From a virus, in IMG/VR virus record IMGVR_UViG_3300036985_002246, positions 96,001-160,000 of that record: a stretch of 64,000 nt of DNA; one strand, given 5' to 3'. Under the pieces are notes generated by a model that ran no database searches, was not told where the DNA came from, and worked only from the letters and a program-made list of their open reading frames with translations. The position numbers and the translations under genes are program-made. Position 1 is the first letter of the stretch, and every line of letters starts with the position of its first letter. Positions 39,233 through 62,813 of the stretch are shown in pieces.

Positions 39233-40054
39233 ATGACTGACAAGCTCGCCGCTGCCGATTCCGGGGACTTCGCTCGTTGGGTGCTCTCGAACTACTCGGA
39301 CCCGATCCCGGAGTCTGAGGCGCGCTCGTTTATCGAGAGCAAGCTGGGCCTGGAGATCAAGCCGCCCCGCAAGCCCCGTGGCGGCCCCCGCTTCCAGAAG
39401 GGTGACGAGGTTGTCATCAAGAAGGACAAGCACAAGAACGCCGAGACCATGGAGGTCTACGCGGAGTTCAACGGCAAGGTCGGCGAGGTGATCGACACCG
39501 ACTCGACTGGGGCCACCGTGAAGTTCAAGTCGGGCGGCGAAGGCGTGTTCCCGGACGCTCAGAAGCTCCGTGGCGTCGGGATCTACAAGTACACGCCCCC
39601 CTTCGTCATGCAGGGCTCCCCGGCGCTGGAAATGGTCTACCTCGCCGAAGAGAAGGAGATCCGCGACGAGCAGAAGGTGATCGTCGATCGGTATCTCTCG
39701 AACGGGAAGACCCAGACCCGCTCCGGCAACTACTACTCTGGCTACGCCTTCACGGCCAGCGTGAACCAGGGCGGCCAGGTCTACTTCTCGGTCTTCCCCC
39801 AGCAGCGCGTCGAGGTGGACCCGGAGTCGGAGAGCGGCTTCCTCCCCCGCAGCTTCAACCCGACGAAGGGCCAGGTGCTCTACATGGGCCTGCTCGGCAA
39901 GCGTCCGGTCGGCTGGAAGGACCAGTGGGCGGAGCAGGAGAACGCTGGGCCGGAGGGTGCAATGCACTCGGCCTCGCTCCGCGCCAAGGTCATTCGGCTC
40001 GCCCATGCGAAGCCTGAGCTTCGGGCAGCCCTCCTCCCGCTCCTGAAGAAGTGA
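39233..40054 (+). CDS. Hypothetical protein with KOW/SH3-like segment and C-terminal LRAKVIRLAH tag
   Basis: FQKGDEVVI...GKVGEVI; terminal tag. Confidence 0.7.
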   Translation: MTDKLAAADSGDFARWVLSNYSDPIPESEARSFIESKLGLEIKPPRKPRGGPRFQKGDEVVIKKDKHKNAETMEVYAEFNGKVGEVIDTDSTGATVKFKSGGEGVFPDAQKLRGVGIYKYTPPFVMQGSPALEMVYLAEEKEIRDEQKVIVDRYLSNGKTQTRSGNYYSGYAFTASVNQGGQVYFSVFPQQRVEVDPESESGFLPRSFNPTKGQVLYMGLLGKRPVGWKDQWAEQENAGPEGAMHSASLRAKVIRLAHAKPELRAALLPLLKK

Positions 40055-40130
40055 GTCTCACGGCCCTCCAGGTTGAGGGCTGGCCACGTCGGTAGAGTCC
40101 CCCGGAGGCACCAACCTCTGGAGGACTCGT

Positions 40131-41327
40131 ATGGCCGCTGAGACTGCTGAGATCCAATTCGCCACTGGGACGTTCCAATCGTTCCGGGCTGTCGCGAAGA
40201 TTCACCTTGGGAAGATCGCGACGGACGTTCGCGAGGGCGACATTATCCAGTTCGACGGTCAGACGATCAAGCTCGGGGGCGTGGACCACTCCTACCCCGA
40301 GCTTCGAGCGGGTATCCGTGTCGGCTGGTTCGTCCCTGAGGCCGACAATATCTCGAACTACAAGCCCAAGCCCGCCGACACCAACGTCCGGGCTGCCGTC
40401 GAGTCCAAGACCAAGGGGAAGAAGCAGGCGCTCCCCACAGTCTCCGACGACGAGAAGGACATGGGACCGGCCCGTGGGCGTCACGTCGTCAAGGCGGACG
40501 ACCCCGACGAGGCCACTGAGGTCGCTTCCTTCAGCCGCGAAGTGAAGAACCAGGACGACCTGGAGCGCCCTGTCGGCCCCTCAATCCGGCGGACGGCAAG
40601 CGAGCAGAAGACCGACTCTGTCGGCAACGAGGACGCAAGGCCGGTTGGCAAGGTCCGGACCCCTGCGGTCATGAAGACCGTCGTGTCAGACGGCACCCAG
40701 GCTGCCCGTGAGGCAGCCAGGCTCGACAACGCTCCCCCTCCTCGTGCGATCCTCAACACGCCCAAGGGTGCGATCCATGCGGCGGAGGCTGAGAAGGTCG
40801 AGTCAATCCTCGACACTCTCAATCCTGAGGACCAGGCTCGTATCGTCCAGGAGCAGCGCAAGGCTCAGGCGCAGGCCGCTGCCAAGGCCGCTGCCAAGGT
40901 TGAGACAGCCGAAGAGGCTGCACCGAAGAAGGTCGAGCCCAAGGCTGCGAAGCCCGCCCAGGTCCCGGACGCGCCCCCTCCTATGACCCGTGAGCAGCAG
41001 ATCGCCGCTGCCCGCCTCCTCCTGGCTGAGGAGGACGCTCGGGTCGCCGCAGCGGCAGCACCTCCCAAGGCTGCCGCCCCCAAGGCTGTGCCGCCCAAGA
41101 AGAAGGCACCGACCTCAATCGAGCAGATCGTGATCGAGGGCACCGACCTCGACCTGGGTCACGGCGTCAAGTGGGACAAGACCCTCCACTGGCGGACCCG
41201 AGCGAAGATCGCTGCTGAGCAGTACGGGACCAATCAAGTGGTCCTGGAAGCTATCCGGGCAGTCGAGGCTCCGGCGGTGGTGGCTCTCATTGCAGAGCGC
41301 CTCGCTGCGATCCACCCGACCGCCTGA
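40131..41327 (+). CDS. Hypothetical protein with Ala/Pro/Lys-rich linker
   Basis: GGAGG RBS; codon usage. Confidence 0.7.
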   Translation: MAAETAEIQFATGTFQSFRAVAKIHLGKIATDVREGDIIQFDGQTIKLGGVDHSYPELRAGIRVGWFVPEADNISNYKPKPADTNVRAAVESKTKGKKQALPTVSDDEKDMGPARGRHVVKADDPDEATEVASFSREVKNQDDLERPVGPSIRRTASEQKTDSVGNEDARPVGKVRTPAVMKTVVSDGTQAAREAARLDNAPPPRAILNTPKGAIHAAEAEKVESILDTLNPEDQARIVQEQRKAQAQAAAKAAAKVETAEEAAPKKVEPKAAKPAQVPDAPPPMTREQQIAAARLLLAEEDARVAAAAAPPKAAAPKAVPPKKKAPTSIEQIVIEGTDLDLGHGVKWDKTLHWRTRAKIAAEQYGTNQVVLEAIRAVEAPAVVALIAERLAAIHPTA

Positions 41328-41396
41328 CCGGGTCCGTCTCGGTTTCTCGCGGATAGGACGTGGTAGTACGAAGCAGCCTTCGCTGCCTGTACACCC

Positions 41397-42119
41397 ATGA
41401 ACAGAACCAAAAGAGCCTCCAGTCAGGTCGCCTGGTCACTCCTCACTGAGGGTGTGACTCAGGCCCGCGTGGACATTCACCGTCTGCGGCTCATGTTCGA
41501 CCGAGCCCAGGTGCTGGTGGAGGAGTCCACGCAGCGGGACCACCTCTACTCGGTGGCGGGCGACATGATTGAGGGTCTTCCGGACACCCTCTCCTCCGTG
41601 GAGAGGGCGCTCGACCGGACCTCCTACGCGCTCGCTGTCATGGGTGAGGACTTCCTCCGCAGCAGGCTCACGTTCGACGACCGTGTCCGGGTGGACAGGG
41701 CCACGACGACCTCTCCCTTCTCGTCAAACCGGCAGAAGGAGTCGATCGAGGCCCGTGTGGCTCGTCGCTTCATTCAGGCTCAGAAGGGTGTGGCTCCGAG
41801 CGCGGAGCCCTACTTCTTCCACAACCCTGAGTTGCATGAGGTCCGGCAGTTCAGCCGGTCCAACGCCCCCTCGAACATTCCTGCCGTCGCCGTCAACGCG
41901 GTGAAGGACCTGGACTCCTCTGAGCGGACGGTCGGTGAGGCCCGCCGAGAGGTCAAGAACGCCCCTCCGGTCCCGACGAAGATCGACCAAATGCCCGGTG
42001 GCAAGGAGTTCTCCACGCTCAACCGCTACCTCGTGAGGACCGTGCAGCCTGGGGTGCGTGGTGTTCCGGAAGGCCACGACGAGGTTCGCAAGCACCCCAA
42101 GCCGAAGGGGAACCTGTGA
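41397..42119 (+). CDS. Hypothetical (putative head) protein
   Basis: KRAS leader; RVARRF motif. Confidence 0.65.
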   Translation: MNRTKRASSQVAWSLLTEGVTQARVDIHRLRLMFDRAQVLVEESTQRDHLYSVAGDMIEGLPDTLSSVERALDRTSYALAVMGEDFLRSRLTFDDRVRVDRATTTSPFSSNRQKESIEARVARRFIQAQKGVAPSAEPYFFHNPELHEVRQFSRSNAPSNIPAVAVNAVKDLDSSERTVGEARREVKNAPPVPTKIDQMPGGKEFSTLNRYLVRTVQPGVRGVPEGHDEVRKHPKPKGNL

Positions 42120-42694
42120 TGCCCCGGAACATTTCCAACCTCAACGGGTACACCTCCGAGCGGCAGCTTTCGATCTTCCACAAGGGCGACTCCATGCCCA
42201 TGAAGATCGACCGGGCCATGGCGCGACATGGCTGGCCCGGAGGTACGTTCGTTCGCTGGGTGGACGACGGCACGGGCGACCCCTGCGTCACGATCGCTGA
42301 CGGTCGCTACTGCGGGTTCACCCCGTGGGGCTCGAACGAGCCTGCGGACCAGTACACGTCGATCACACAGACGAACCCGACGTACCGGTACATTACCCTG
42401 TTCTTCGGTGGCAACTTCGTCGCCACCACGACCTTCGAGACGCAGACCTACAAGGCCCGTCACGGCTTGACCCCGCCCACGCCTCTCGTCTACGCCCCAC
42501 AGGACTTCCTGTACGTCAGCGAGAACGGGATCATTACCAATCAGGACGAGAGCAACCCGCTGGTGAACCCCGGTGGTCTGTTCCCTGACGGCACCCCAAT
42601 CCTCGTGCCGTTCCTGTACTTCGGCCTGTGCGCTGTGCCCCCGAGCACCGCGACCGACGGCAAAATCTTCGTACAGACGAACGTCGGAGTCTGA
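42116..42694 (+). CDS. Putative decoration/cement-like protein
   Basis: N-terminus (RQLSIFHKG) loosely resembles 36024-36710 (SALRILHVG). Confidence 0.5.
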   Translation: MMPRNISNLNGYTSERQLSIFHKGDSMPMKIDRAMARHGWPGGTFVRWVDDGTGDPCVTIADGRYCGFTPWGSNEPADQYTSITQTNPTYRYITLFFGGNFVATTTFETQTYKARHGLTPPTPLVYAPQDFLYVSENGIITNQDESNPLVNPGGLFPDGTPILVPFLYFGLCAVPPSTATDGKIFVQTNVGV

Positions 42695-42696
42695 CC

Positions 42697-44289
42697 ATGA
42701 GCGGGCCGTCCCGACAGGCAGGACACGCTGCCCCGGCGGGCGAACTCTTCGGGGTTCGCACCGTCGTGGACGAGAAGCCTGCCAAGGGGATCGACGACCC
42801 TCTCGGCGACACGATCTACCACTCCCCAGGTGAGTCTCCGAAGTCTGACCGTGAGCGGGCCAAGCCGCAGCGGACGGACACCAGGGAGAACCTCGACAAG
42901 GACCCGCCGGACCCGCCGGTCTTCAACACCCCCGGCCCCTCTGTTCCCATGCGGGACAGGGACACCCGGACGCCTGGCGACCCAGACCAGAGCGACAAGA
43001 TCAAGGTCCGCACGCCCAGCGTCCCCGGTGAGGAGTACGGCCACCCCTACAAGGACAACGTCTACCCTCGCCGCACCGACGGGGAGGGTGGTCCGAAGCC
43101 CTCACACACGGCCTCTGACTCCGACTTGAGTGAGGAGGAGGAGTTCCGGCTGGCTGGGCTCTTCCCCTCGTACTCGAAGCGGCAGCACAAGCAGCGGGGC
43201 CAGGCGAAGCGGTACTATCAGAAGTACTACCGGCGGCACAAGGGTCGGATCAAGACGAAGGCCAAGCGCCGGTACAAGAAGGTCCGCAACAGTCCGAGCT
43301 TCAAGCGGCAGCGCAAGCTCCGGAACAACCCCAAGTACAAGAGCCGCTTTCGCAGGCTCCCGGCTGGGGGGGTTCACTCGACGACTGAAATGGCGGACAG
43401 GCACCGCAAGCACGCCTCTGAGCCGCTCACCTTCTTCCACTCGGTCTTCGGGTGGGGGGACATTACGGACTTCTCTGAGGAGGGTGTGGTAGTCCACCTC
43501 GACGGCGAGGAGGAGGAGTGCCTCACGATCCCGATCTCCCTGTTCGTGAGGGGCGTCGTCTTCGACTCGGAGGAGGACACAGACTCCTTCTTCGACACTC
43601 TCGACGAGGTGTACGGAACACCTGACCCACGGGCCGTCGCTGCCACCTTCTACCGGGAGGTCTACACGCCCGGCTGGAACATGGACCCAGGGCAGGGGGC
43701 GCAGAATCTCGGCCTCCCAGGTCCGGAGAGCCCGATCGTGGACTCCCTCGAAGAGGAGCACGACGACCGGGCTCCAGGGCACAAGCTCGACATTCGCGAG
43801 TTCGACGGTGGCGGCGGCTCGGCCAAGGTCATTCCTTCGGGCCATGACTTCGCCAACAAGGAAGCCCACGGCCCCTCCGCCATTCGGGTCGCCAAGCGGC
43901 TCGCTGAAATGCTCGACGGCACCTCGAATGAGGTCCTTCAGCGGTCCACCTCGATCAAGCCGAAGGGGAAGCGGTTCGACCCGAAGAACTCAATGTTCAC
44001 GTTCAGCGTTCCCGGCTCGGGTGGTGACTCCTACGTCGTGCGGATCAAGGCACTTCGCAAGGGCAACGTCACGAAGCTCTCGAAAATGGACCTGCTGGTG
44101 TCATGCTCGTGCGACTTCTGGCGGTGGCAGGGTCCAGAGCATTGGGCGAAGGTTGAGAGCTACCTCTACGGGAAGCCTCGTGGGACGGCCTCCAAGCCCG
44201 ACATGAAGGACCCCTCCGGAGACCACCGTCTCTGCAAGCACGCAGCAGCCTGCCTTCGCTCGGTCAAGGGTTGGGAGCTTTCGAGGTAA
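42697..44289 (+). CDS. Multidomain protein: Arg/Lys-rich tract, acidic segment, C-terminal SWIM Zn finger
   Basis: SCSCDF...LCKHAAA SWIM pattern; basic tract ~43180-43360. Confidence 0.7.
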   Translation: MSGPSRQAGHAAPAGELFGVRTVVDEKPAKGIDDPLGDTIYHSPGESPKSDRERAKPQRTDTRENLDKDPPDPPVFNTPGPSVPMRDRDTRTPGDPDQSDKIKVRTPSVPGEEYGHPYKDNVYPRRTDGEGGPKPSHTASDSDLSEEEEFRLAGLFPSYSKRQHKQRGQAKRYYQKYYRRHKGRIKTKAKRRYKKVRNSPSFKRQRKLRNNPKYKSRFRRLPAGGVHSTTEMADRHRKHASEPLTFFHSVFGWGDITDFSEEGVVVHLDGEEEECLTIPISLFVRGVVFDSEEDTDSFFDTLDEVYGTPDPRAVAATFYREVYTPGWNMDPGQGAQNLGLPGPESPIVDSLEEEHDDRAPGHKLDIREFDGGGGSAKVIPSGHDFANKEAHGPSAIRVAKRLAEMLDGTSNEVLQRSTSIKPKGKRFDPKNSMFTFSVPGSGGDSYVVRIKALRKGNVTKLSKMDLLVSCSCDFWRWQGPEHWAKVESYLYGKPRGTASKPDMKDPSGDHRLCKHAAACLRSVKGWELSR

Positions 44290-44297
44290 CGTCTCCC

Positions 44298-44681
44298 ATG
44301 CCCACCTACGACTACGAGTGCCCCAAGTGCGAGTCGAGCTTCGAGCGAGTGCTCCCGCTGGCTCAGTACCGAGACCCCCAGACCTGTGAGACGTGCGGGG
44401 AGATTGCGACGAAGGTCATGTCCCCGGTCAACTTCGTGCTCAAGGGCGACAACTGGGCGTCGAAGGCCAATCGGATCAGCGGGCAAATGGCTCAGAAGAA
44501 CCGCAAGCTCGACGCCAAGCAGGCAGAGAGAAAGCGGTCCATGCCCGGCGTCACCCTCGTGCCCAACGTCAACGGGGAGCGCGTTGGCTCCTGGTCGGAA
44601 GCTCAGAAGCTCGCGGCCTCGAAGGGCAAGAACGCCGAGTCCTACGCTCCGAAGGTCCGCAAGGAACAGGCGAAGCAGTAG
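44298..44681 (+). CDS. FmdB-family zinc-ribbon protein
   Basis: MPTYDYECPKCESSFE...CETCG...KGDNW. Confidence 0.85.
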   Translation: MPTYDYECPKCESSFERVLPLAQYRDPQTCETCGEIATKVMSPVNFVLKGDNWASKANRISGQMAQKNRKLDAKQAERKRSMPGVTLVPNVNGERVGSWSEAQKLAASKGKNAESYAPKVRKEQAKQ

Positions 44682-44715
44682 GTACGCAATAGATCCCCGG
44701 TAGGAGAACCTCTAC

Positions 44716-45474
44716 ATGACCCGCCAGCGAGACATTCCCTCCATTCAGTACCGGAGCCAGGGCCAGATCAATCTGACCCTCCCGAAGGCTCCGGGGATCG
44801 ACTTCTACGAGGTCCGTGGCGCGGCACGCCTGAATGACGCCTACGGGGCGGTCGCTGGCGTGCCTGGGTTCGGGGCGAACCCAATGTTCCGGATTCCCTG
44901 CGGAGGGGACTTCCGCTCGAAGGCGATCCAAATGAAGCGGCTCCCAGCCGTCGAGGAGTCGCAGCGAGGTCTGTCTCGGGCGGTCTATGACCCCGACGAC
45001 TTCGCCACTCCGATCGTGGCAGGGGCGACCTACCTCCCGAGCGACGAGGTGACGGCGTACCTTCGTGTGGCCGCGTTCGACCGTGCGACCAACGCCTTCC
45101 TGCCCGAAGGTCCGATCCTGATTGTGCCACCCTACGACTTCTTCTCGACGAAGGAGCCGATCTTCACGCTCACAGGGGTTGCGCCCAATCTCGGTATCGG
45201 GGCGTTCCCCCCGAACCTCCCGGACACTCTGCCCCCGTCGGTCATGAACTTCCTGCTGCCCTCGTACAGCATGACGCTCTCGATCGTGAACCTCGACCCT
45301 GTGGTCGGTGGGAAGCCTATCTTCGTGGGATTTCACCCAGGTATGCCTCCGACCGTCGTCATGCCTGGGGACGAGATCGGGCTCACGGGCGCTGGTTCCC
45401 CTGAGTTCTTCATTGCCAGCCCGAACGGGAACCCCTGGTTCACAATCCGAGTCGCGGTCGCAAACAGCGCCTAA
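44716..45474 (+). CDS. Hypothetical virion protein
   Basis: AGGAG RBS; Pro-rich, beta-rich. Confidence 0.65.
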   Translation: MTRQRDIPSIQYRSQGQINLTLPKAPGIDFYEVRGAARLNDAYGAVAGVPGFGANPMFRIPCGGDFRSKAIQMKRLPAVEESQRGLSRAVYDPDDFATPIVAGATYLPSDEVTAYLRVAAFDRATNAFLPEGPILIVPPYDFFSTKEPIFTLTGVAPNLGIGAFPPNLPDTLPPSVMNFLLPSYSMTLSIVNLDPVVGGKPIFVGFHPGMPPTVVMPGDEIGLTGAGSPEFFIASPNGNPWFTIRVAVANSA

Positions 45475-45587
45475 CGCAGATTGGGTCCGGTAGAGGGTCT
45501 ATCGTGGACCCTCTACGGAGAGGGCTTCGGGCTCTCACATTTCACCCCCGTTCTCTGCGGCGGGTCCATTCTCAGGGAGACAAGACA

Positions 45588-46268
45588 ATGCCGTTCATCT
45601 GCAAGCGCCGTAGTGACATCCAGAATGGGATCCTCCAGGTCACTGACCTCTGGCCCAACGCCAGCCAGCGGAACCAGTCGATCGACCCGCAGCCCCAGGG
45701 TCCCCGCTACGTCAGCGCCCCGGTGACCAACACGGTCGTCCTGAGCAGCACGGGCGCGACCCAGCGGTACCTCGCGACGGCCCAGTCGGGCCTCTCGGCG
45801 TACCTCGTCGCCAACGTCGATGTGGCTGGCCCCGCGCTCACGCCCGCCCAGGCGGACGTGGCCTCGGCAGCCCTGATCGCTGCCATGCAGGCAGGCGCGG
45901 TCCTCAACCTCGCGGCGATCAACGTGATCCTCAACGCGGCTGCGGCAGGTGCAACCCTCACGGGTGGTACCTCGACCGGTGCGGTCATGGACGTGCTCCG
46001 GATCCTCTCGGGCGCGACCTACACAGTCCCGGCTGGCACGGTCGTTCAGGTCGTCGTCTCGACGTTCAACCCCCAGGCGACCCCTGCGGTGTGGAACGCG
46101 AACAACTTCGACTTCAACGCCTACCACGACATTCTCGTGAGCGACTCGTCGTTCTACATCTCGCTCGCTCAGGGCCAGATCAACGGCTTCTCGTCGGCTT
46201 CGTTCATGTACCTCGGGACGGCGGGCGCGGCGCTCGTCGTGTACGACAACACGGGTGCAGTCCTCTGA
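45588..46268 (+). CDS. Hypothetical virion protein, tandem paralog A
   Basis: MPFICKRRSDIQ...; highly similar to the next gene. Confidence 0.7.
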   Translation: MPFICKRRSDIQNGILQVTDLWPNASQRNQSIDPQPQGPRYVSAPVTNTVVLSSTGATQRYLATAQSGLSAYLVANVDVAGPALTPAQADVASAALIAAMQAGAVLNLAAINVILNAAAAGATLTGGTSTGAVMDVLRILSGATYTVPAGTVVQVVVSTFNPQATPAVWNANNFDFNAYHDILVSDSSFYISLAQGQINGFSSASFMYLGTAGAALVVYDNTGAVL

Positions 46269-46336
46269 GTCCTGGAGGGACCTGATTCTCAGGTCCCTTG
46301 CAGGTCTTGGTATCCTGCAACGCAAAGGGAAGTGGG

Positions 46337-47386
46337 ATGCCTTTTATCTGCCTCCGGCGCTCGGACATTCAGGACGCGGTTCTTCAGATCACTGACCTCT
46401 GGCCCAACGCTTCGCAGCGGAACCAGAGCATTGATCCGCAGCCGCAGGGTCCACGCTACGTGGACGGGCCGAAGACCTCTTCGGTGATCCTGAGCAGCAC
46501 AGGTGCAACGCAGAGGTACCTCGCGCAAGCGCAGGTTGGCCTCGCCGCGTACCTGATCGCGAACGTGGAGGCCGCCAATCTGGCGGCCCTCACGCCCGCT
46601 CAGGCCGACACGATCGCTGCCTCCCTGATCGCCACAATGCGGGCGGGTGGGACGCTCAATCTCGCGGCGATCGACGCGGCCCTCTCCACGACTGCCGGTG
46701 TGGCTGCGACCGCCACCCTGACGTTCGGTGGTGCCCCGGTCAACGGCGAGACCGTCACGATCAACGGCAAGGTCTACACCTTCCGAGCGGTGATCAACGG
46801 GGCCTCTGTCAACGGTGACGTGCTGAACGACGCTCTGGCGGCCAACGCCATTGCGAACCTCGTCGCTGCGATCAATCTCGGTGCGGGTTCCGGCGTCAAG
46901 TACGCCGCCGCCATGACGCTCCACCCGACGGTGTCCGCAGCCCCTGGGCTTCTTCCTGAGATCCTGGACGCGACGGCCAAGTTCCTGGGCGCAGCAGGCA
47001 ACCTGCTCACGAACGCGACGAACGTCACGCTCGGCGTCTGGGCACCTGTCGGGTTCTTCGGTTCGGGCCTGGACGCCTCCCTGACCGGCGGTGCCTCGAC
47101 CGGGACGGTCCTCGACGTGCTTCGGATCCTCGCTGGTGCGACCTACACGGTGCCCGCAGGGACCGTCATTCAGGTGCCCGTCTCGACGTTCAATCCTCAG
47201 CCGACCCCTGCGGCGTGGAACAGCGCGAACTTCTCGGACTTCAAGGACGTTCTGGTCTCGGACTCGTCGTTCTACACCAGCCTCGCGCAGGGTCAGATCA
47301 GCGGCTTCCTGTCGCCCCAGTTCAGCTACCGGGGCGTCACGAGCCCGGCGCTCACTGTGTACGACAACGCTGGCGCAGTTCTCTGA
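46337..47386 (+). CDS. Hypothetical virion protein, tandem paralog B with ~125-aa inserted domain
   Basis: MPFICLRRSDIQ...; insert ATATLTFGG...TVTINGKVYTF...NLVAAIN. Confidence 0.7.
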   Translation: MPFICLRRSDIQDAVLQITDLWPNASQRNQSIDPQPQGPRYVDGPKTSSVILSSTGATQRYLAQAQVGLAAYLIANVEAANLAALTPAQADTIAASLIATMRAGGTLNLAAIDAALSTTAGVAATATLTFGGAPVNGETVTINGKVYTFRAVINGASVNGDVLNDALAANAIANLVAAINLGAGSGVKYAAAMTLHPTVSAAPGLLPEILDATAKFLGAAGNLLTNATNVTLGVWAPVGFFGSGLDASLTGGASTGTVLDVLRILAGATYTVPAGTVIQVPVSTFNPQPTPAAWNSANFSDFKDVLVSDSSFYTSLAQGQISGFLSPQFSYRGVTSPALTVYDNAGAVL

Positions 47387-47431
47387 CCTGAGCCCATGAG
47401 GTCCTCCCCCCGCCGCTTCGGCAGCGGGGTC

Positions 47432-47459
47432 GAAGCCGCCGAAAGGCGGCTTCTGCTTT
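47432..47459 (+). terminator. Terminator-like GAAA hairpin, preceded by a cUUCGg hairpin at 47408-47429
   Basis: gaagccgcc-GAAA-ggcggcttc, then tgcttt. Confidence 0.65.
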
Positions 47460-47510
47460 GGCCCTCCACGGCGGTAGAGTCCAACGGCTCACCCAGGGAA
47501 GGCCGAAGCA

Positions 47511-47741
47511 TTGGACGACGCTCATTACCACACAAGCGATCTGTACTACGCAGCGTTCCTGCGTGTGGCAGGCGTCAAGTTCATTGAAACGACCCGTGAC
47601 GGCACCCGGACTATCTTCGTCTTCGAGAACGCTGAGGGCATTCGAGACCTGAAGCGCGAGTACTTCAATCGAACGGCCAAGGTAGGCGCACTCGACTACG
47701 CCGACCAGGTTCGCAGCATGAAGGCCATGATCCACCTGTAG
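47511..47741 (+). CDS. DUF5659-like small phage protein
   Basis: TSDLYYAAFL...RTIFVFE...V.ALDY pattern. Confidence 0.6.
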   Translation: MDDAHYHTSDLYYAAFLRVAGVKFIETTRDGTRTIFVFENAEGIRDLKREYFNRTAKVGALDYADQVRSMKAMIHL

Positions 47742-51958: not shown

Positions 51959-51959
51959 C

Positions 51960-54900: not shown

Positions 54901-55211
54901 GCCATACGACGGTGCGGTGGTTCTACAATGACGGATCCGGAACGGCGTCAAGCTCTGACATGGGTGCGAGCTTTCCCGCGAAGACGGCAAACGTCGTCTA
55001 CGAGATTCGCATTTTCTGCCCGCCCAATGGCTCGACGATCTACTACTCGATCGAGCGGCTCGACTCGGCTGCTTTCGCTGAGGGGAGTGTCACTACGGAC
55101 ATTCCGGCGGCCACACAGCTTCTCTCGCCGCAGATTTGGGCGAACAATGGTGTCGATAACTCAGCAGTCGCACTTGCGGTCGTGTCGCAGTACCTTGAGA
55201 CGGACAACTAG
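51960..55211 (+). CDS. Long tail fibre/spike-like protein (beta-helix segment, HGSLSGLGADDHPQY and ARxDHxH repeats)
   Basis: 1083 aa; TSVAAAIASI...PYMVSVYPGEYTE; ARQDHKH, ARSDHTH. Confidence 0.7.
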   Translation: MVTIIAKNTTAADLPIDNLSVVDAVIPAFGTVTLTDSNFVYQIQADPQLRDYVTSGDIVISDGTSDLSLTDGLNYLSTVAIANSSASVDTFIAENSPAQVVTVAVSGGQLTSVAAAIASITDATVTKPYMVSVYPGEYTEPPFTMKPYVSVVGVDGFYSVHIKTNNDSAHFITGEAGSELLNVSLTGPTGVGYATIDYQTESRIPFMLDHVLIRGGYYGVWCHPAAARGVVHAFFVTDWYSGNTINQLFRSTDYGNITCMNSAKMSGPAGSCVTGWYGSGPHAEFTLDLCAFRDSSGTAFFADNGAYYRLTACAVSKASKALHIGSTGTASEFQAIGCVINEAEVTTHIQTDTPNCVVEYQGSAWSSRFNLASGTDAFILATDTDALAVTVVGELRVGDLATAVPVGSYLRKTSSTASTTFTTLSRGTGRVLNVGAGTGFISNGSSIVGVTWGAATPTLTANSNLWVIVDSAGVVQEVLTEPDYEAVVVLAIATTSATDTIFLSRHYVAASQHLPHMHEYFETVLGPLSVSGCTTVKHASPSLQLDVDGGVFYIAENEFTASANAPITFTYWYRNGSGGWNWVTSQTSINVTQYDDGSGTLATLTGTNFRRDSVYLISGTWGTEYHVVLGQEQFATALLAVVNPTPPEQLRVNSLRVAAVVVQKDATDLTSVIDQRPILGQLSTGTTAVTSHGSLSGLGADDHPQYQLVTGKNAANGYAGLTAGTMIATAQLPFTATPPVNVTKAAAAVGTSTEIARQDHKHDVTTAAAVAVGTANAEGSATSLARSDHTHQVTGFSIANLTIDAEGYPNLGDASTTTPATPATGVTLFSRFRAGRHMASQVGPSGIPYSFQPALFASKITLWTAQGNGTSVSTINFGTSNTGNATARNVATTNFATSLRRLAFVSTTGSGSSSGTRHNLLQFYRGDAAGRGGFFYVARFVVDTISAGARWFVGLYGSAAAIGNANPSSLANTLGFGIDASHTTVRWFYNDGSGTASSSDMGASFPAKTANVVYEIRIFCPPNGSTIYYSIERLDSAAFAEGSVTTDIPAATQLLSPQIWANNGVDNSAVALAVVSQYLETDN

Positions 55212-55222
55212 GAGCTAGATCA

Positions 55223-56353
55223 GTGGCCGCCACGACCCCCAACACCGTGTTCGAGTACACCGTCGATTCCGACGGCATTTTCCCCAACAAGCGCGTGGAC
55301 ATTCCGCGCTTCACGGAGGAGATCCGCGCCAGCAGTATCTCCGTCGCGCTTCGTGGGATCACGATCGCCTCCGGCAACTGCGTGATCGAGTTCTCCGGCA
55401 ACGCAAGCTCACCCCCAGGGCTGTCGTCGGCGGAGATTCTGGTCCTCGACACTCTGGTCACAAGCCACACAGGGGAGCCCCTCCCTGTGGGTGCTGCGAC
55501 TGTGACCCTCTCCTCCCCGTCCAACCCGGAGAACAAGATCCCACTCTTTTCCCTCGCGGGACGCGAGGGCAGTGAGGTGATCTACGCCACGCACAACTAC
55601 TGCGACAAGACCACCTGGTACTCGCAGAGCCTCCGGGCGGAGTCAGAGACCCTCGTGGACTCCGGGAATGGCCTCACCTGGGGGAGCGCCCATACCCACT
55701 GGGTGGATATGTACTCCGGCAAGGTCATGGACGACGACGGGGTTCGCACAGACGTTTCCCACGGGTACTCCGTGGTCGTCACCGCGAACGGGGTCGAGAA
55801 GACCATGCGCGAGGTCTACGAGGACAACGGGGGTGACTACACCGTGGACTTCGCTGCGGGCACGGTCACGTTCTTCTCGGTCCCAACAGGCCCGGTGGTG
55901 GCGACCTACTCGTATGCGGACGGGTCTGCATGGATCCTCCGGGCCTCGCCCGGTAAGAACCTCGACGTTGAGTCCGCCGAGACGCAGTTCAGCACCGACG
56001 TGGAGATCACGGACTCGATCGTGTTCACCTTCCACGGGTATGCGGCTGTGTTCGCCCCAGCCGCCGTGGCCGCCAACCTCTTGCAGCCCACCGACCTCGT
56101 GGAGATCGGGAGGGACACGTACAAGCGGTTCACCCAGATCATTGACAACGCGATCGGTTCCTTCCCTGTCGTCCCGGCCATTGGCGGTGCTGCCAGGGGC
56201 ACACAGCACGCAGTCTACGGGTTCCCGTTCAGGTACGGGACGCTCCGACGGATCTACTCGGAGTACGGAATGGAACTGCGGGTGTTCACGAAGCACGGTC
56301 GAGTGCTTCCCGGCGAGTACGCCACCACAACCTTCTACTGCGTGTCAAGGTGA
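55223..56353 (+). CDS. Hypothetical virion protein
   Basis: Tiles the operon; beta-rich. Confidence 0.65.
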   Translation: MAATTPNTVFEYTVDSDGIFPNKRVDIPRFTEEIRASSISVALRGITIASGNCVIEFSGNASSPPGLSSAEILVLDTLVTSHTGEPLPVGAATVTLSSPSNPENKIPLFSLAGREGSEVIYATHNYCDKTTWYSQSLRAESETLVDSGNGLTWGSAHTHWVDMYSGKVMDDDGVRTDVSHGYSVVVTANGVEKTMREVYEDNGGDYTVDFAAGTVTFFSVPTGPVVATYSYADGSAWILRASPGKNLDVESAETQFSTDVEITDSIVFTFHGYAAVFAPAAVAANLLQPTDLVEIGRDTYKRFTQIIDNAIGSFPVVPAIGGAARGTQHAVYGFPFRYGTLRRIYSEYGMELRVFTKHGRVLPGEYATTTFYCVSR

Positions 56354-57282
56354 AGGCCCTCTGTCTCAGTGGTGGGGGTGCTCGTGGTGCCTACCAGGTG
56401 GGCGCGATCAAGTACCTCATGGGTGAGCGTGGTGAGAACTACGACATTTTCACCGGCACCAGCGTCGGCGCTCTCAATGCGGCGTACCTTGCTCAGTTCC
56501 CTGTAGGGGAGGAGTTGGACGCGGCACACGGCCTGAGGGAACTGTGGCTCGGGCTTGACTCCTCGAAGGTCTGGCGGGAGTGGTACTGGGGGCTGCTGGG
56601 GCTCCTTCCAGTCGTTCTGCCGAAGTGGTTTGGTGGCAAGACCTCCGCCTACTCAACGGCTCCTCTGAGGGGATTGGTTGACCACCACCTCAGGCCGCGA
56701 GCGATCCTGTCTTCGGGGAAGAAGCTCCGAGTCGGGGCCGTGGACCTGGACTCAGGGGTCCGCAGGGTGTGGGACGAGCAGGATCCTGCCCACCTACGGA
56801 AGGCTGTGCTCGCAAGCTCGTCCTTCCCGGTGTTCTTCGAGCCTGTCGAGATCAACGGACGCCTCTACACGGACGCCGGGGTGCGTGAGGTCAGCCCAAT
56901 CGAGGACGCGATCAAGGCCGGGGCCAGGGAGATCCACCTGATCTCCACCAGACCCATGGAGGTCGTGGGTGCCTTCGACCGCAAGGGCGGCCTCTCGCTC
57001 GGGCGACGTGTGCTCGGGATCATGGAGTCTGAGATCGAGCGGTGGGACGTGAGGGCCGTCGAGTTGTACAACGCCCTCTACGAGGCGAGGCACCCGCTGG
57101 CCGTCGGCAAGTCCTACGTCACCCTGAAGGTGTTGCGCCCGGAGCAGGACCTGCTGGACAACGCCCTGGACTTCAACACGACCGACATTATCGCCAACAT
57201 GGGGCGCGGCTATGCCGACGCGAAGGCCATGAACTGGGGGTCCGGTCCTGCGGTACAGTCCGAGAGCAAGGTGCCCTCATGA
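56350..57282 (+). CDS. Patatin-like phospholipase
   Basis: LSGGGARG oxyanion motif; GTSVG nucleophile; DAG variant of DGG. Confidence 0.9.
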   Translation: MKALCLSGGGARGAYQVGAIKYLMGERGENYDIFTGTSVGALNAAYLAQFPVGEELDAAHGLRELWLGLDSSKVWREWYWGLLGLLPVVLPKWFGGKTSAYSTAPLRGLVDHHLRPRAILSSGKKLRVGAVDLDSGVRRVWDEQDPAHLRKAVLASSSFPVFFEPVEINGRLYTDAGVREVSPIEDAIKAGAREIHLISTRPMEVVGAFDRKGGLSLGRRVLGIMESEIERWDVRAVELYNALYEARHPLAVGKSYVTLKVLRPEQDLLDNALDFNTTDIIANMGRGYADAKAMNWGSGPAVQSESKVPS

Positions 57283-57734
57283 GCGCAGAATCCAAGGTGC
57301 TTCAGGTCGGTCTAGGGGACGCCATGCGCCGTCTCCTCGACATTGAGATCCGCGTCCGCCACGGGATCACCACCCCCGAGGTGGCTGTCGAGCGGGATAT
57401 GCTCCTCGAAGCCCTGAACCGGGTCGAGATCAATCTCGGGTTCGACTGTGACAGCGACGGGCTCCCCGACACCGTGGACCTGTTCAGGGAGACCTCTGAG
57501 ACTTCCTGCTGCCGCCTCATTGACCTGCCAGGCGTGAAGCCCACGAAGAAGCCCACTGTGAAGAAGGCGGCACCTCCCCCGGCTCCCGTGCCACCTGCGG
57601 TCTCGCAGGAGGTGTCCTCCTCCCGTCTGGAGGAGCTTCCTTCGCTCACCACGGGTCCGCTCGGGACCCCAGCGGGTCCGGGCTTCTTCTCTCGAATGTT
57701 CAACCCGGCTGACAAGAAGGGTGGGAAGCAGTAG
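57279..57734 (+). CDS. Hypothetical protein
   Basis: ATGA overlap; DCDSDGLPD; Pro-rich. Confidence 0.55.
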   Translation: MSAESKVLQVGLGDAMRRLLDIEIRVRHGITTPEVAVERDMLLEALNRVEINLGFDCDSDGLPDTVDLFRETSETSCCRLIDLPGVKPTKKPTVKKAAPPPAPVPPAVSQEVSSSRLEELPSLTTGPLGTPAGPGFFSRMFNPADKKGGKQ

Positions 57735-58042
57735 TGCCGACGCTCAACTTCCTGCTGCTCGCCTACGGGATCGCCTTCGGGGTCCAGAACAAGCTCCCGT
57801 TCCTTCGGGGCAAGCTGGCTGTCCTGGACGCACTGATCAAGTGTACCTACTGCTTGGGGTTCCACACGGGATACCTGGCTTGGGGTCTGTACTGGGTCAT
57901 GGAGAGGCCGTCTCTTGGGACTGACGCCGGAAGCATTGCACTCTCGGTGGTCCTCGCCGTCGTGACGTGGGGGCTCTCTTCGGCGGCGTTCTCCTACGGG
58001 GTGGACACGGCGATCCGGTGGCTTGAATATCGCCCCCGGTAG
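57734..58042 (+). CDS. Small membrane protein, DUF1360-like
   Basis: 2-3 hydrophobic segments; LIKCTYCLGFH. Confidence 0.55.
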   Translation: MPTLNFLLLAYGIAFGVQNKLPFLRGKLAVLDALIKCTYCLGFHTGYLAWGLYWVMERPSLGTDAGSIALSVVLAVVTWGLSSAAFSYGVDTAIRWLEYRPR

Positions 58043-58057
58043 GCGAGGGCTTCAAGC

Positions 58058-58489
58058 GTGCCGGTCGTACAACTTTTCCGACCTCAGAGTTCCGGGGACG
58101 TGATTCTTCCGGCGTCCATGCCGCCAGGGTATGTGCCCGGCTCGTACCTGAACATGGCCGTGAAGATCGTGGACGTGCTCGGGGTGCCCACGATCTACCC
58201 GTGCATGGCCCAGAAGAACACGGACAGCCCGCAATCGTTCTACGGGATCCTGAAGCAGGACCTCCCGACGGTGATCGTCACGGCAGGCAGGGGGGCCGCC
58301 ACGACTCCGCTCGTCGAGGGGGCGATCCCACTTGTGCCGGACAAGGACGTGTACCTGTCCTCGACCACGCCAGGGTATGTGACCCAGGCGACGCCCCAAT
58401 CTTCAGGGACCGTCATGCTCCGGGTCGGGTTCGCCCTTGACGCTGCTCGGGTCATTCTGTCCGGTGACTTCCGGGTGGACTACTACTGA
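58058..58489 (+). CDS. Cement/decoration-fold-like small protein
   Basis: VYLSSTTPGYVTQATP...RVGFAL pattern. Confidence 0.5.
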   Translation: MPVVQLFRPQSSGDVILPASMPPGYVPGSYLNMAVKIVDVLGVPTIYPCMAQKNTDSPQSFYGILKQDLPTVIVTAGRGAATTPLVEGAIPLVPDKDVYLSSTTPGYVTQATPQSSGTVMLRVGFALDAARVILSGDFRVDYY

Positions 58490-58522
58490 GCCTATCAGCA
58501 GACCCTGCTAGGAGTCTCGTCC

Positions 58523-58906
58523 ATGTCCAATCTCCGCTCGAAGCTGATCCGCCTGGCCCACCAGAAGCCAGAGCTTCGGGCTGACTTGCTGCCGCTGCTC
58601 AAGTCGGCGAGACCCACGTTCGTGGAGGCCAAGCAGACGATCCTCGACTACCTGGGGGAGCACGGCTGGAAGCTCTCGGCCCCTGGACTCAAGGTCATGC
58701 ACGCCACGTCCAAGGACGGGAAGGTGCGCCTCTGGTTCAAGGCACAGGCGGTCTACTTCACCTACAGCACGGGTAGACACGACTTCGGGGAGGCACACTC
58801 CCTTCACAACGACATTCGCTCAATGACCCCAGAGGCGTTCGCAAAGGACGCCGACGAGACCGCCAGGGCTGACCTCTGGGTGGAACGGGACGCTGAGCGG
58901 GGGTGA
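58523..58906 (+). CDS. Small protein with N-terminal LRSKLIRLAH tag
   Basis: AGGAG RBS; tag then KSA|. Confidence 0.7.
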   Translation: MSNLRSKLIRLAHQKPELRADLLPLLKSARPTFVEAKQTILDYLGEHGWKLSAPGLKVMHATSKDGKVRLWFKAQAVYFTYSTGRHDFGEAHSLHNDIRSMTPEAFAKDADETARADLWVERDAERG

Positions 58907-58946
58907 GCCACACCTCGTCTTTCACAACCAGTAGGGAGTCCTCTCA

Positions 58947-59405
58947 ATGTCCGACCGAACACTTCGAGCCAAGCTGATCCGCCTCGCCCACGCCAACCCC
59001 GAGCTTCGCGCTCAGATCCTCCCGCTCCTCAAGGACGCGGGCTGCGAGAAGCTGCCTGAGGGCGGCATGAGGGACAACTGCGAGGAGAAGGTCGAGGAGG
59101 GCAAGGAGTCTGCCTCCAAGAAGGCCGGTGGCAACGACGTGATCGAGTACGTCCTCCCCATGGACGACATGGCCAAGCTCTACCACACGCTGAAGAAGCA
59201 GGACGAGCAGTCAGCCAAGCTCCTCATGGAGGTCTACAACGTCCTGCGGGATAGGCTCAAGCTCTCCGACGGCGAGAACGAGGCCATGAGCCGGGTCCGT
59301 GGCATGGTCACTCGTGGGCAGAACTGGGACGCGGCCCTCCTCCGCAACAACGTCTTCAAGGCCGCCCACTCGCTCGGCATGAAGCTGCCGAGCTTCATGT
59401 TCTGA
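58947..59405 (+). CDS. Small protein with N-terminal LRAKLIRLAH tag
   Basis: GGGAG RBS; tag then KDA|; SKKA|G. Confidence 0.7.
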   Translation: MSDRTLRAKLIRLAHANPELRAQILPLLKDAGCEKLPEGGMRDNCEEKVEEGKESASKKAGGNDVIEYVLPMDDMAKLYHTLKKQDEQSAKLLMEVYNVLRDRLKLSDGENEAMSRVRGMVTRGQNWDAALLRNNVFKAAHSLGMKLPSFMF

Positions 59406-59418
59406 GCGGAGACACTCG

Positions 59419-60315
59419 GTGGCAGTCGCATTTCTACCAGGGACAGTGCTCGGGCAGGGAGATCTCGACATTTTCCTGACGAACTCGTCGTCGATTGCGA
59501 CCAACGCCTTCGAGATCACCTACGCGATCTACTGGGTCAGCAACGTCTTCCCGTTCCCCGAGATCCTGATCGGGTCGCCGAACCGGATCCCGCTGAACCC
59601 GAACGTCGGCGAGTACTACGCCTCGCTCCAGGTGCCGACCAACGCGAGTATCGGCACCTACCACATTCGGTGGAACTTCAAGCAGTTCGCCGGGAGCCCA
59701 GTCCAGCAGGTCGTGCAGGAGTGGGCCGTGGTCACGCCTGGGACGACAACCTCCCCGATCTACACCCAGTGCGTCACGTCAATGATCGGGAAGCTGCGGC
59801 TCCTCCTCCGCGACCAGAACCCCGACAAGTTCTACCACTTCCGCCCACCGGAGGCGGAAGGCAACATTGGCGCGTACAACCAGGTCTTCGGTCAGATCTG
59901 GGAGGACGCTGAGCTTCTGGAGTACCTGGAGCGCGGGCTCGACTGGTGGAATATGTTCCCACCGACGACGCCTGACCTGGACACCCTCGACAAGCTCTGC
60001 GCCGAGAAGTCCGTGTGGCGGACAGCCGTTCTGTGGGAGGCGATTGCTCACGCCTGCTTCGCTGTGTCACTCAACTGGGTGGCGGACGAGTTCGACTACT
60101 CAATCGGTGGTGTTTCCCTCTCGATCGAGAAGTCCTCGAAGTACGAGTCACTCAAGCAGAACGCCGAGTCTCAGTTCGACAAGGCCACCGAAGCCAAGGC
60201 TCGGACCGTGAAGTTCATTCGCGGCTTGCAGCAGCCCAAGTACGGGATCGGGATAAGGTCGGCCTTTGGACCACAGGTAGGTCGGGGTGTGCTCAGTCCG
60301 AGGAATTTCCTCTAA
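59419..60315 (+). CDS. Putative neck/head-completion protein
   Basis: KLRLLLRD...WEDAELLEYL...FDYSIGGVSLSIEKSSKY, resembling head-tail adaptors. Confidence 0.55.
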   Translation: MAVAFLPGTVLGQGDLDIFLTNSSSIATNAFEITYAIYWVSNVFPFPEILIGSPNRIPLNPNVGEYYASLQVPTNASIGTYHIRWNFKQFAGSPVQQVVQEWAVVTPGTTTSPIYTQCVTSMIGKLRLLLRDQNPDKFYHFRPPEAEGNIGAYNQVFGQIWEDAELLEYLERGLDWWNMFPPTTPDLDTLDKLCAEKSVWRTAVLWEAIAHACFAVSLNWVADEFDYSIGGVSLSIEKSSKYESLKQNAESQFDKATEAKARTVKFIRGLQQPKYGIGIRSAFGPQVGRGVLSPRNFL

Positions 60316-60433
60316 AACCTGAATCATTCCGGGTACCATCACTCCGTCATCAAGTACCTGAAGCGGTAACAGACAGCAAGAAAAGTACGGGTTAGGGGTA
60401 GACGTTCGGTTCTGGGTCAAGTAGACTCCAGGC

Positions 60434-61504
60434 ATGAAGTCCACGGCGACCGTCGAATGCCCGGCCTGCAAGAAGCTCATTCCGACCAAGGCGATCCCCA
60501 AACACACTTCGGGGTGTCACAGTTGGTCTACGGTCGTTGGGGTTCCCCCGTCCAAGTTCAACTGGGACGCCCACTGCAAGCGCGGCCCATACGCAGACGG
60601 GCTCATGGAGGGCACCAACTACGTTCGGTGCTTGGAGTGTGCGAAGAAGGGCTGGGACGCTCGTTTCAAGCGCATGATGGACCACCTCAAGAAGGTCCAC
60701 GGCTATGACGAGGCGACGTACCTTGCGAAGTACTCCAACGCGGCGGTGAGGATCGCCTCTACGGCCCAGAAGCGTGAGGGGACAGTCCAGGCTCGTTACG
60801 GGGTCGAGAACGTCTTTCAGGCCGACTCTGTGAAGCAGCAGAGCCGCAAGACAATGAGACAGCGGTACGGGGCCAGTCACCCACTTCAGGCTCTGAAGCC
60901 TCGCCAGAAGATGCTTGCAACCAATCTCACTCGCTACGGGTCAGCCAATCCGTTCGGCTCTGCTAAGATCAAAGCGAGGCTGAAGGCCACCAACATTCTC
61001 CGCTACGGGACCGAGTTCCCCAATCAGAACCGGGGGGTTATCGCTCGTCGTGTTGGGACGAACATGATCCGGTACGGATCTCCCGTGCCACAGGGGTTTG
61101 GTAGGTCGGGAAAGACCTCCCTTGAGGATTGGGTAGACAAGCTCGCCCTAGCAGGCGTCGTCTACACCGGGGACCGTTCGTACTGGGTCCGGTGTACCGG
61201 ACAGGACGGTTTTCCGAAGAACCGCAATCCCGACTTCGTGGTCTACTCGCCTGAGAACCTCGCCAGGGTGCTGGAAGGGGCACCTACCAATGAGGTCCGC
61301 ACGAACAAGGTGATCGAGGTGCTGGGGGATTGGTGGCACCGGGAGGAGATCGTGGGCCTCCCCCGAGACGCCTACGTTGCTTCCCGCATCGCGGAGTACG
61401 CCTCCGCCCGGATCTCCTGCCTCATCCTCTGGGAGTCCGAGGTCAAGAAGCAACCTGAGCTAGTCCTGGAGCGCCTCGCTGGGTTCCTCTCAGTAGGTCC
61501 GTGA
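60434..61504 (+). CDS. Free-standing endonuclease: Zn-finger/repeat N-terminus and Vsr-like PD-(D/E)XK C-terminus (likely homing endonuclease)
   Basis: CPAC, CLEC...HLKKVH; RYGVENVFQ-type repeats; NPDFV...VIEVLGDWWH...LILWESE. Confidence 0.75.
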   Translation: MKSTATVECPACKKLIPTKAIPKHTSGCHSWSTVVGVPPSKFNWDAHCKRGPYADGLMEGTNYVRCLECAKKGWDARFKRMMDHLKKVHGYDEATYLAKYSNAAVRIASTAQKREGTVQARYGVENVFQADSVKQQSRKTMRQRYGASHPLQALKPRQKMLATNLTRYGSANPFGSAKIKARLKATNILRYGTEFPNQNRGVIARRVGTNMIRYGSPVPQGFGRSGKTSLEDWVDKLALAGVVYTGDRSYWVRCTGQDGFPKNRNPDFVVYSPENLARVLEGAPTNEVRTNKVIEVLGDWWHREEIVGLPRDAYVASRIAEYASARISCLILWESEVKKQPELVLERLAGFLSVGP

Positions 61505-61527
61505 GTTCTCTATAGGCCGGGGGTGAC

Positions 61528-62520
61528 ATGACCAATCTGCTTCGTCTGGTCGCAGTGCTGGGAGTGTCCCTCCTGTTCTCGTGCGGGCCGTCACCGGCTC
61601 CTCTTGTGGACGCAGGGTTCGACGCCGGGACGACCGACGGTGGGGTTCCTCCGACACGGCTCCGGGTGATCAACGGCTCCACCGAGACGCTGTGGATCTT
61701 CTACCAGGTCGGCTCGGGCGGCGGGTCGATCCCCACGGCTCACCAGGTCCAGTTGGCGGCTGGCGAGCACCTCGACTACCCGATCCCCGACGAGGGCCTC
61801 GCGGCCACTCGGTTCTGGCCAGGCTACGGCTGTGACGACACCGGGAACAACTGCCAGATCGGGCAGTCAGGCGGCCCCGCAGACCAGGGCTTCACCTGCC
61901 CAAGCTACGGCTGCGCCCCGCCGATCGACTCGAAGTTCGAGGGCACCTTCGGCTGCCTTCCAAGCGTGCCGGTCGGCGACTGCCTGATCAACCCGTCGAG
62001 CCCGACGCATGACCCGCTCCCTGCCACGGACGGCTGGGACACGAGCATGGTTGACGGCTTCACGCTGCCCTTCCGGGTCGAGGTGTTCGGGGACTGTCCC
62101 GGCGGTCCGATCGCCAACACGATCGACTGCTCGGCGCTCCCCCTGTCCATGTGCCCGACCACGGAGGACCTCTCCACGGACGGGGCATTCCCGGCGCTCA
62201 TGTCGGAGAGCATGATGCTCACGAACCCCTCAAGCTCGCTGCCGGGTGGCTGCTACGCGGACTGCTCGAAGCTCACCATGTCCCAGTGGTCTGGGCTCTC
62301 CTACGACCCCGCTTCGGCTGAGGCGCAAATGTACTGCTGCCCGACGCCGCCGATTGAGCCCCCGGCCTGCCGAGTCGGCCCAGTCGCGAGCACAGCCTAC
62401 ACCGACCTGGTTCACCGGACCTGCCCGCAGGTCTACGCCTACTCCTACGACGACGGGAGCGGGCTGTTCTCGTGCCCGGCGGGCGTCCACTACGAAGTCA
62501 CCTTCTACGGACTACAATGA
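61528..62520 (+). CDS. Thaumatin-family lipoprotein
   Basis: Lipobox LFS|C; RFW..GC; DTSMVDGFTLP; YCC; CPQVYAYSYDD..LFSC..YEVTF. Confidence 0.85.
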   Translation: MTNLLRLVAVLGVSLLFSCGPSPAPLVDAGFDAGTTDGGVPPTRLRVINGSTETLWIFYQVGSGGGSIPTAHQVQLAAGEHLDYPIPDEGLAATRFWPGYGCDDTGNNCQIGQSGGPADQGFTCPSYGCAPPIDSKFEGTFGCLPSVPVGDCLINPSSPTHDPLPATDGWDTSMVDGFTLPFRVEVFGDCPGGPIANTIDCSALPLSMCPTTEDLSTDGAFPALMSESMMLTNPSSSLPGGCYADCSKLTMSQWSGLSYDPASAEAQMYCCPTPPIEPPACRVGPVASTAYTDLVHRTCPQVYAYSYDDGSGLFSCPAGVHYEVTFYGLQ

Positions 62521-62813
62521 CCAATCTCCGCAGCAAACTGATCCGTCTCGCCCACTCGAATCCCGAGCTTCGGGCTGACCTCCTGCCGCTGCTCAAGACG
62601 GCTACCCCGCAGGAGTCCACCCCTGAGCAGCAGGCGGCTTCAGCAGAGGCCAAGCGTCTCTCGGAGATCGCGAACGAGAAGGGGACGCGCTCCGCCCACG
62701 CCAAGGCGGCCTCTGCCCACAGGGCAGCCGCCGACCTCTACCCTTGGGGGCACCTCATGAAGAGCACACACAAGGGAATGGCGCAAATGCACAAGCAGAA
62801 GGCCGGGCGGTGA
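62517..62813 (+). CDS. Small protein with N-terminal LRSKLIRLAH tag
   Basis: ATGA overlap; tag then KTA|. Confidence 0.7.
   Translation: MTNLRSKLIRLAHSNPELRADLLPLLKTATPQESTPEQQAASAEAKRLSEIANEKGTRSAHAKAASAHRAAADLYPWGHLMKSTHKGMAQMHKQKAGR

Follow-up and report, generated by a model that had tools for sequence, protein, structure and literature searches.

A portable hairpin tag on unrelated proteins of a huge-phage clade: a probable docking module and a possible address to the procapsid interior

The DNA analysed here is a 64,000-nucleotide stretch (bases 96001–160000, hereafter the window) of the 199-kb viral contig IMGVR_UViG_3300036985_002246. Four of its genes encode otherwise unrelated proteins that carry a common peptide tag of 24–27 residues, which is predicted from structure models to be a basic alpha-helical hairpin followed by a flexible linker (unconserved or modelled at low confidence). 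The tag very probably acts as a docking module for one common partner. That this partner is the interior of the procapsid, with tagged proteins being loaded into the head, is the likeliest of the readings considered, though one about which we are somewhat more doubtful than confident. Judged by sequence, the tag characterises a single clade of huge phages.

The tag and its carriers

An earlier reading of the DNA without database searches (the sequence-only reading) had reported four copies of the tag, and a six-frame motif scan of the window returned exactly four at the same places, all on the plus strand. Copy 1 (39977–40051; motif match 39977–40048) closes a 273-amino acid (aa) protein encoded at 39233–40054. 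The other three are N-terminal and run on into a lysine-x-alanine (K-x-A) ending: copy 2 (58532–58612; motif match 58532–58603) in a 127-aa protein (58523–58906), copy 3 (58962–59039; motif match 58962–59033) in a 152-aa protein (58947–59405), and copy 4 (62526–62606; motif match 62526–62597) in a 98-aa protein (62517–62813). When a hidden Markov model (HMM) of the four copies was run against all six-frame open reading frames (ORFs) of the 199-kb contig, these copies scored at E 5e-21 to 8e-18, which excludes chance. The same HMM detected three further N-terminal copies outside the window, at contig positions ~7991, 63916 and 64925, and a divergent copy at 75591, so that the earlier count of four proteins was too low; a WGR domain is present in one of these additional carriers. 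With the tag excluded, the four window proteins fell into separate BLAST clusters, in agreement with the claim that their bodies are unrelated.

Compared copy with copy, identity was 67–92% at codon positions 1 and 2 and 29–79% at position 3, and the DNA 5′ of the tagged start codons was unrelated between copies. These two results indicate selection on the peptide, as had been proposed, and rule out a DNA-level repeat or a mobile (promoter) cassette. The consensus of 111 N-terminal copies reads M, 2–5 residues, then LRSK(L/V)IRLAHxxPELRxxLLPLLKxA, with L1, R2, A9 and R16 invariant and I6, R7, L8, P13 and P21 nearly so; conservation ends after K-x-A-(A/G/S). Identity from carrier to carrier is about 70–85%, and the net charge of the tag is +3 to +5. 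An AlphaFold model of the 127-aa protein (95-row alignment) showed a helix at residues 4–14, a turn at the proline and a second helix at residues 16–29, with predicted local distance difference test (pLDDT) values of 86–97. The model of the 273-aa protein (pLDDT 84, predicted template modelling score 0.70) comprised two helices, tandem SH3/KOW/Tudor-like beta-barrels, a flexible linker (residues 240–243, pLDDT <50) and the C-terminal tag as a hairpin (H244–259/H261–272).

No family for the tag was found in Pfam or PHROGs, whether with the four window proteins or with 132 multi-tag and 140 related-phage tagged proteins; a tag profile against PDB sequences returned nothing at E up to 10, and a literature search on motif strings gave no relevant paper. 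The tag family is undescribed, in line with the sequence-only reading, which had known of no description; portable address peptides on phage proteins as such are already known from T4 and P1. A fold search with the 273-aa model gave weak SH3/KOW/Tudor matches only (TM score about 0.2), and a wide fold search with the 127-aa model gave generic three-helix matches only (Z up to 4.2). The spacing of the tag resembles that of the 24-residue LRV/HEAT-like repeat of Pfam. The four window proteins nevertheless had no LRV match at E up to 1; one of the 132 multi-tag proteins has an LRV match somewhere along its length.

The tag was found to be independent of position. Of 151 distinct tagged ORFs from related-phage loci, 119 (about 79%) carry it right after the start and about 12 at the C-terminus, while the top 150 database matches, a set biased toward multi-copy proteins, contained 340 copies (120 N-terminal, 55 C-terminal and 165 internal). 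Up to seven copies occur in one protein with Lys/Glu-rich linkers between them, and some natural proteins (P0101, of 63 aa, P0041 and P0016) consist of little beyond tag-linker-tag. For the 273-aa protein, 52 homologues were found, and the tag is C-terminal in this phage and its nearest relative, N-terminal in eight others, at both ends in one member and missing from a few. Most members of this family carry a divergent N-terminal variant with a three-residue insertion, whose HMM cross-detects standard tags. The claim of a modular tag usable at either terminus thus holds among orthologues of one protein. Because it can serve either terminus of one and the same body by way of a flexible tether, the tag is better described as a docking domain than as a leader peptide.

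The bodies that bear the tag are diverse. After masking of the tag, the 151 ORFs formed at least 91 unrelated clusters. A Pfam scan of the 140 related-phage proteins returned ART-PolyVal (3), DUF2958 (3), RNA ligase (2), DUF5710 (2) and RelA_SpoT (2), as well as pentapeptide repeats, 2H-SAK phosphoesterase, WGR, DUF3846, DUF7007 and others; in one ORF (L038:3992-4840) the tag at residues 3–31 is followed directly by the ART-PolyVal domain. The pentapeptide and WGR partners presumably belong with the injected effectors. The repertoire is one typical of injected phage effectors: for the polyvalent proteins and MuF fusions that contain ADP-ribosyltransferase (ART), RelA/SpoT and 2H phosphoesterase domains, head packaging followed by injection is predicted, and T4 Alt, an ADP-ribosyltransferase, is packaged and delivered in this way (Iyer et al. 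2017, PMC5512222). The text of that paper does not mention pentapeptide, WGR or DUF3846. Among the families listed for 276 tagged proteins (4 + 132 + 140), no MuF, portal or ArdC-N header was present; by the same analogy, the tag occupies the place where a MuF/portal header would be.

Two observations concern the architecture of the carriers. The divergent tag stands at the start of contig ORF 75591–76094. This ORF and its neighbour 74204–75565 are matched in the uncultured phage LR745208.1 by a single 588-aa protein (L016:472-2235) in which the tag is internal, so that some internal tags mark points of gene fusion or fission. In addition, at least three further mini-modules are shuffled among tagged proteins between Lys/Glu-rich linkers, namely a two-cysteine module (GCEKLPEGGMRDNCE), one around DPTKNMSPED and one around GEFTQE. 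Sites of such modules are window positions 59040–59084 (plus strand), a contig protein (L001:992-1753) and database proteins P0007, P0009, P0014, P0019 and P0041; the module at 59040–59084 (GCEKLPEGGMRDNCE), the second shuffled element of its carrier, directly follows copy 3 and is found again in many multi-tag proteins, as well as in the tagged protein encoded at contig 7991. The tag and the mini-modules form a small vocabulary of units of 15–40 residues.

Distribution among phages

A tag profile of seven copies was searched against 1.84 billion representative proteins from metagenomes and gave 3364 matching protein clusters at E up to 1e-3, of which 316 remained at E up to 1e-10. The sequence-only reading had proposed an HMM search for the diversity of fusion partners, and the partners found are diverse. 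The same capsid protein, at 89–99% identity, was present in 8 of 10 tag-bearing IMG/VR contigs tested (42 to 63% guanine plus cytosine, G+C), and the other two are fragments. A strict back-translated DNA pattern of the tag core matched 43 stretches in IMG/VR, mostly on contigs of 50–485 kb, and once in 596 Gb of prokaryote genomes, so that an equal occurrence in cellular proteins, which had been named as a possible outcome, was not what was found. The single prokaryote match, among 185,579 species genomes, is JAPKZA010000101.1, a 1920-bp piece of an Acidobacteria metagenome-assembled genome and probably a mis-binned phage fragment. It hints at Acidobacteria as the host phylum, since phage Tunturi_5 infects an acidobacterium.

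In a search of 50,697 GenBank phage records, the sole tag match was LR745208.1, a 485-kb uncultured phage, which has 11 copies. With E values up to 1 allowed, none was detected in Tunturi_5 or phage G. Five sampled fragments of 166–266 kb, each roughly half a genome, carry 8–15 copies apiece, which are dispersed over the contig with some of them grouped in small arrays, and the tag is present in phages of 42–53% G+C too. Identity to the capsid protein of the window is 93% in LR745208.1, 49% in Tunturi_5 and 38% in phage G. Between the 63% G+C phage and the 42–43% G+C phages G006, G007 and G009 the capsid protein is 89% identical, whereas the protease and the scaffold-like protein reach only 34–42%; by these sequence comparisons, the shell protein is under unusually strong constraint.

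Docking partner and alternative readings

We infer docking, its partner, packaging and ejection along the following lines. The tag would be an autonomous docking hairpin of ~26 residues, placed on a flexible linker at either end of a protein or between its domains, and would bring all carriers to one common binding partner. The likeliest candidate for this partner is the inside of the assembling procapsid, presented either by the highly conserved capsid protein or by the acidic scaffold-like protein. Enzymes and small proteins that carry the tag would become trapped inside the head and be released together with the DNA on infection, while proteins with several tags and charged linkers would cross-link the same sites multivalently, much as scaffolding proteins do. 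Head loading is proposed because the tag is restricted to phages, its bodies are of effector type, a tagged gene recurs in a slot next to the capsid gene and others sit in tail-gene operons; because the tag is basic and the scaffold-like protein acidic, one capsid protein is shared by the carriers' genomes and modules are common to tagged proteins and head ORFs; and because a P22 scaffold fragment and P1 DarB, both described below, provide precedents. The broadest form of the idea, in which the hairpin would be the general capsid-interior address of one clade, with ~20–30 effectors packed and injected and the multi-tag proteins forming an internal scaffold, is put forward more hesitantly still; the effectors may include ADP-ribosyltransferases, alarmone synthetases, RNA-repair enzymes and DNA mimics.

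The head module contains both candidate receptors (all genes on the plus strand). The major capsid protein (36736–37614), of HK97 fold, is a homologue of phage G gp27 (PDB 6wkk, E 6.5e-62). Its gene is preceded by those of a head maturation protease homologue (32826–34295; phrog_18299, E 1e-12), a scaffold-like protein and a 272-aa protein, and followed by a LAGLIDADG endonuclease gene and then by the C-terminally tagged gene. The scaffold-like protein (34306–35811) was recognised by the position of its gene between the protease and capsid genes and by its composition, being very acidic and of low complexity (116 D/E vs 67 K/R) with repeated AKKSEDE-like units. A tagged gene in the slot between the capsid gene and genes for 398-aa and 240-aa proteins (the former a conserved structural-module gene, 40131–41327 in the window, and next after the slot gene in relatives) was found in the window, LR745208.1, G001, G002 (divergent tag), G003 and G004 (two genes), and also in the three near-identical fragments G006, G007 and G009 (detail from G009 only); it is not present in G005. 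The slot is occupied by at least three unrelated bodies, in genomes that are related, so that the cases are not independent; even allowing for this, the body has been exchanged and a tag retained. The three small tagged genes of the window lie within the tail/fibre module at 13–40 nucleotides from their neighbours or overlapping them: that of the 127-aa protein begins 33 nucleotides 3′ of the preceding tail-module gene, and the start of that of the 98-aa protein overlaps the stop of a thaumatin-like gene (61528–62520). Short modules were furthermore common to tagged proteins of other phages and two head-module ORFs (28439–31555 and 31557–32228).

Several results weigh against head loading. Most tagged genes are scattered over the genome, far from structural genes, and two relatives, phage G and Tunturi_5, have the same capsid fold without the tag. 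The HMM detected no tag in the scaffold-like protein, and near-length homologues of the head-module families 41397–42119 and 31557–32228 were tagged in 0 of 85 and 0 of 94 cases, respectively. Of the copies borne by the highest-scoring, multi-copy proteins, about half are internal, and among the partners an RNA ligase and a possible bactofilin (weak match, E 3e-4) need not be virion proteins. The phage-specific promoter pattern GTGWAAA-N15-CGCTT occurs 1.3 kb upstream of the tagged pair 63916/64925; its 19 copies lie at contig 13–63 kb and 161–164 kb, with none between 63 and 161 kb. Being absent from the 96–160-kb structural block, it implies that this block is transcribed from another promoter class, and the tagged genes thus probably belong to more than one expression class. 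No common promoter was found 5′ of the tagged genes, the pattern being near only two of them.

The same applies to the K-x-A ending, which the sequence-only reading had likened to the N-terminus of the capsid protein and in which a shared processing site might be seen. The trend itself is real, with alanine occupying position 26 of the tag in 67 of the 111 N-terminal copies, and YLKTASG is indeed present in the capsid protein, at residues 17–23. This segment is part of the N-arm; phage G gp27 aligns with that arm but has other residues at these positions. The motif L[KR]xA[ASG] was found 12 times in 19,954 aa of head proteins against about 7 expected. As a candidate prohead-protease motif K-x-A is thus not clearly enriched, and a protease site shared with the capsid is unsupported.

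Scattered gene placement is what would be expected if the tag docked instead on a hub outside the capsid, such as a replication or RNA-repair factory, a phage hub protein, or the host RNA polymerase or ribosome, where tagged enzymes would be concentrated during infection. We consider this alternative rather unlikely, though next in weight after the procapsid. It is favoured further by the two tagged genes behind the non-structural promoter class, by partners such as RNA ligase, 2H phosphoesterase and WGR, and by the KOW/Tudor/SH3-like barrels of the one widely conserved tagged family, which are often nucleic-acid or protein binding; no hub candidate was found, however, and the recurring tagged gene by the capsid gene and the tight tail-gene operons would be left unexplained. 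The natural proteins made of barely more than two tags and a linker, and those with up to seven copies between Lys/Glu-rich linkers, would fit a tag that binds itself, hairpins pairing into four-helix bundles so that multi-tag proteins build a network or condensate which single-tag proteins join. A lone two-helix hairpin would also need a partner to bury its hydrophobic face. We regard self-association as improbable, given that a net charge of +3 to +5 disfavours it; it would in any case be compatible with, and not exclusive of, docking on a capsid or a hub.

That charge and three invariant arginines would suit a basic mini-domain holding its carrier on DNA or RNA. The tag consists of two short helices only, though, its hydrophobic and proline positions are conserved as strongly as the basic ones, and neither Pfam nor PDB gave a match to a DNA-binding family, an identity that the sequence-only reading had considered; nucleic-acid binding is accordingly given little credence. 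Still less is given to a strict N-terminal leader, a peptide that needs a free N-terminus and directs processing, modification, secretion or timed degradation. The 119 of 151 tagged ORFs in which the tag begins 2–5 residues after the start methionine speak for it, whereas C-terminal and internal copies are common, orthologues swap the terminus and the tag is too little hydrophobic for a signal peptide; no modifying enzyme was consistently linked to it in neighbourhoods that were not searched exhaustively.

Known systems, significance and minor observations

The capsid-targeting sequence (CTS) of T4 is a peptide of about 10 aa with a free N-terminus which is cut by the prohead protease and loads foreign protein into proheads. 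The sequence-only reading had taken the tag as a longer, modular analogue, and a close analogy is not supported: at over twice the length, the tag is predicted to fold into a hairpin, its copies are frequently internal or repeated, and some of its genes lie outside the structural block behind another promoter class. In P1, head loading requires no more of DarB than its first 30 residues (PMC9024508). Like these two, the tag is a short portable peptide, mostly N-terminal, on otherwise unrelated phage proteins. As with the T4 CTS, its carriers include proteins of host takeover, T4 Alt being paralleled here by the tag with ART-PolyVal. Unlike both, it also occurs in C-terminal, internal and tandem positions and has thousands of carriers in total, with dozens in each genome, and whereas the P1 Dar proteins are without a shared consensus, copies of the tag are strongly alike between carriers.

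Cargo peptides of encapsulins and bacterial microcompartments are short terminal helices on linkers that, from either terminus, address diverse cargo to a shell, which in encapsulins has the HK97 fold. The tag resembles them in being borne on a linker at either terminus and in co-occurring with one shell protein; they differ in being cellular, shorter single helices with experimentally shown binding sites.

Cargo fused to a P22 scaffold fragment ending in the coat-binding helix-turn-helix was encapsidated in vivo (PMC9962691). The coat-binding domain is, as the tag is predicted to be, a small basic helix-turn-helix of roughly 30 residues on a flexible tether, and multivalent tag carriers would behave as scaffolding proteins do. 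At the sequence level the two show no similarity (a PDB search with the tag profile returned nothing at E 10), and it is the C-terminus of the P22 scaffold that carries the helix-turn-helix, whereas the scaffold-like ORF 34306–35811 is without the tag. With the polyvalent and MuF effectors (PMC5512222), the tagged proteins have in common ART, RelA/SpoT and 2H domains and, on the reading proposed here, a header that couples effectors to a delivery machine; those proteins comprise 2–15 domains, while the tagged ones mostly have one body and a 26-residue hairpin as header.

Huge phages have hundreds of proteins whose role is not known. A shared tag sorts ~20–30 of them per genome into one functional class and points to a common partner. 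Should the procapsid be that partner, the injected arsenal of a phage clade would be defined from sequence alone, the filling of large heads with many different proteins would be explained, and a short natural tag would become available for loading foreign proteins into phage-derived shells; it would be the first natural generalised cargo-loading code of a tailed-phage head. Whatever the partner, an undescribed 26-residue domain that recurs in >3000 protein clusters without a counterpart in Pfam, PHROGs or PDB merits a family entry.

Further observations were made in the head module. In HK97, the C-terminus of the protease is the encapsidation signal. Within the last 25 residues of the protease homologue of the window, a helix (ARTMIRLASLL, 34215–34247, plus strand) is conserved in five relatives and resembles tag helix 1; as a relative of the tag it was rejected, since its HMM gave no significant match to tags, and it is kept as a lead only. 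The 273-aa protein was also considered as an orthologue of Tunturi_5 gp335 or phage G gp28, which are encoded after the respective capsid genes, and was dismissed for lack of similarity. Directly after the capsid gene, the LAGLIDADG homing endonuclease (37762–38685) has a C-terminal helix-turn-helix; in the same place LR745208.1 has an ORF of 1229 aa (L005:21077-24766) with weak similarity to it. In the tail/fibre module, the protein encoded at 61528–62520 contains a thaumatin-family domain (E 4e-16).

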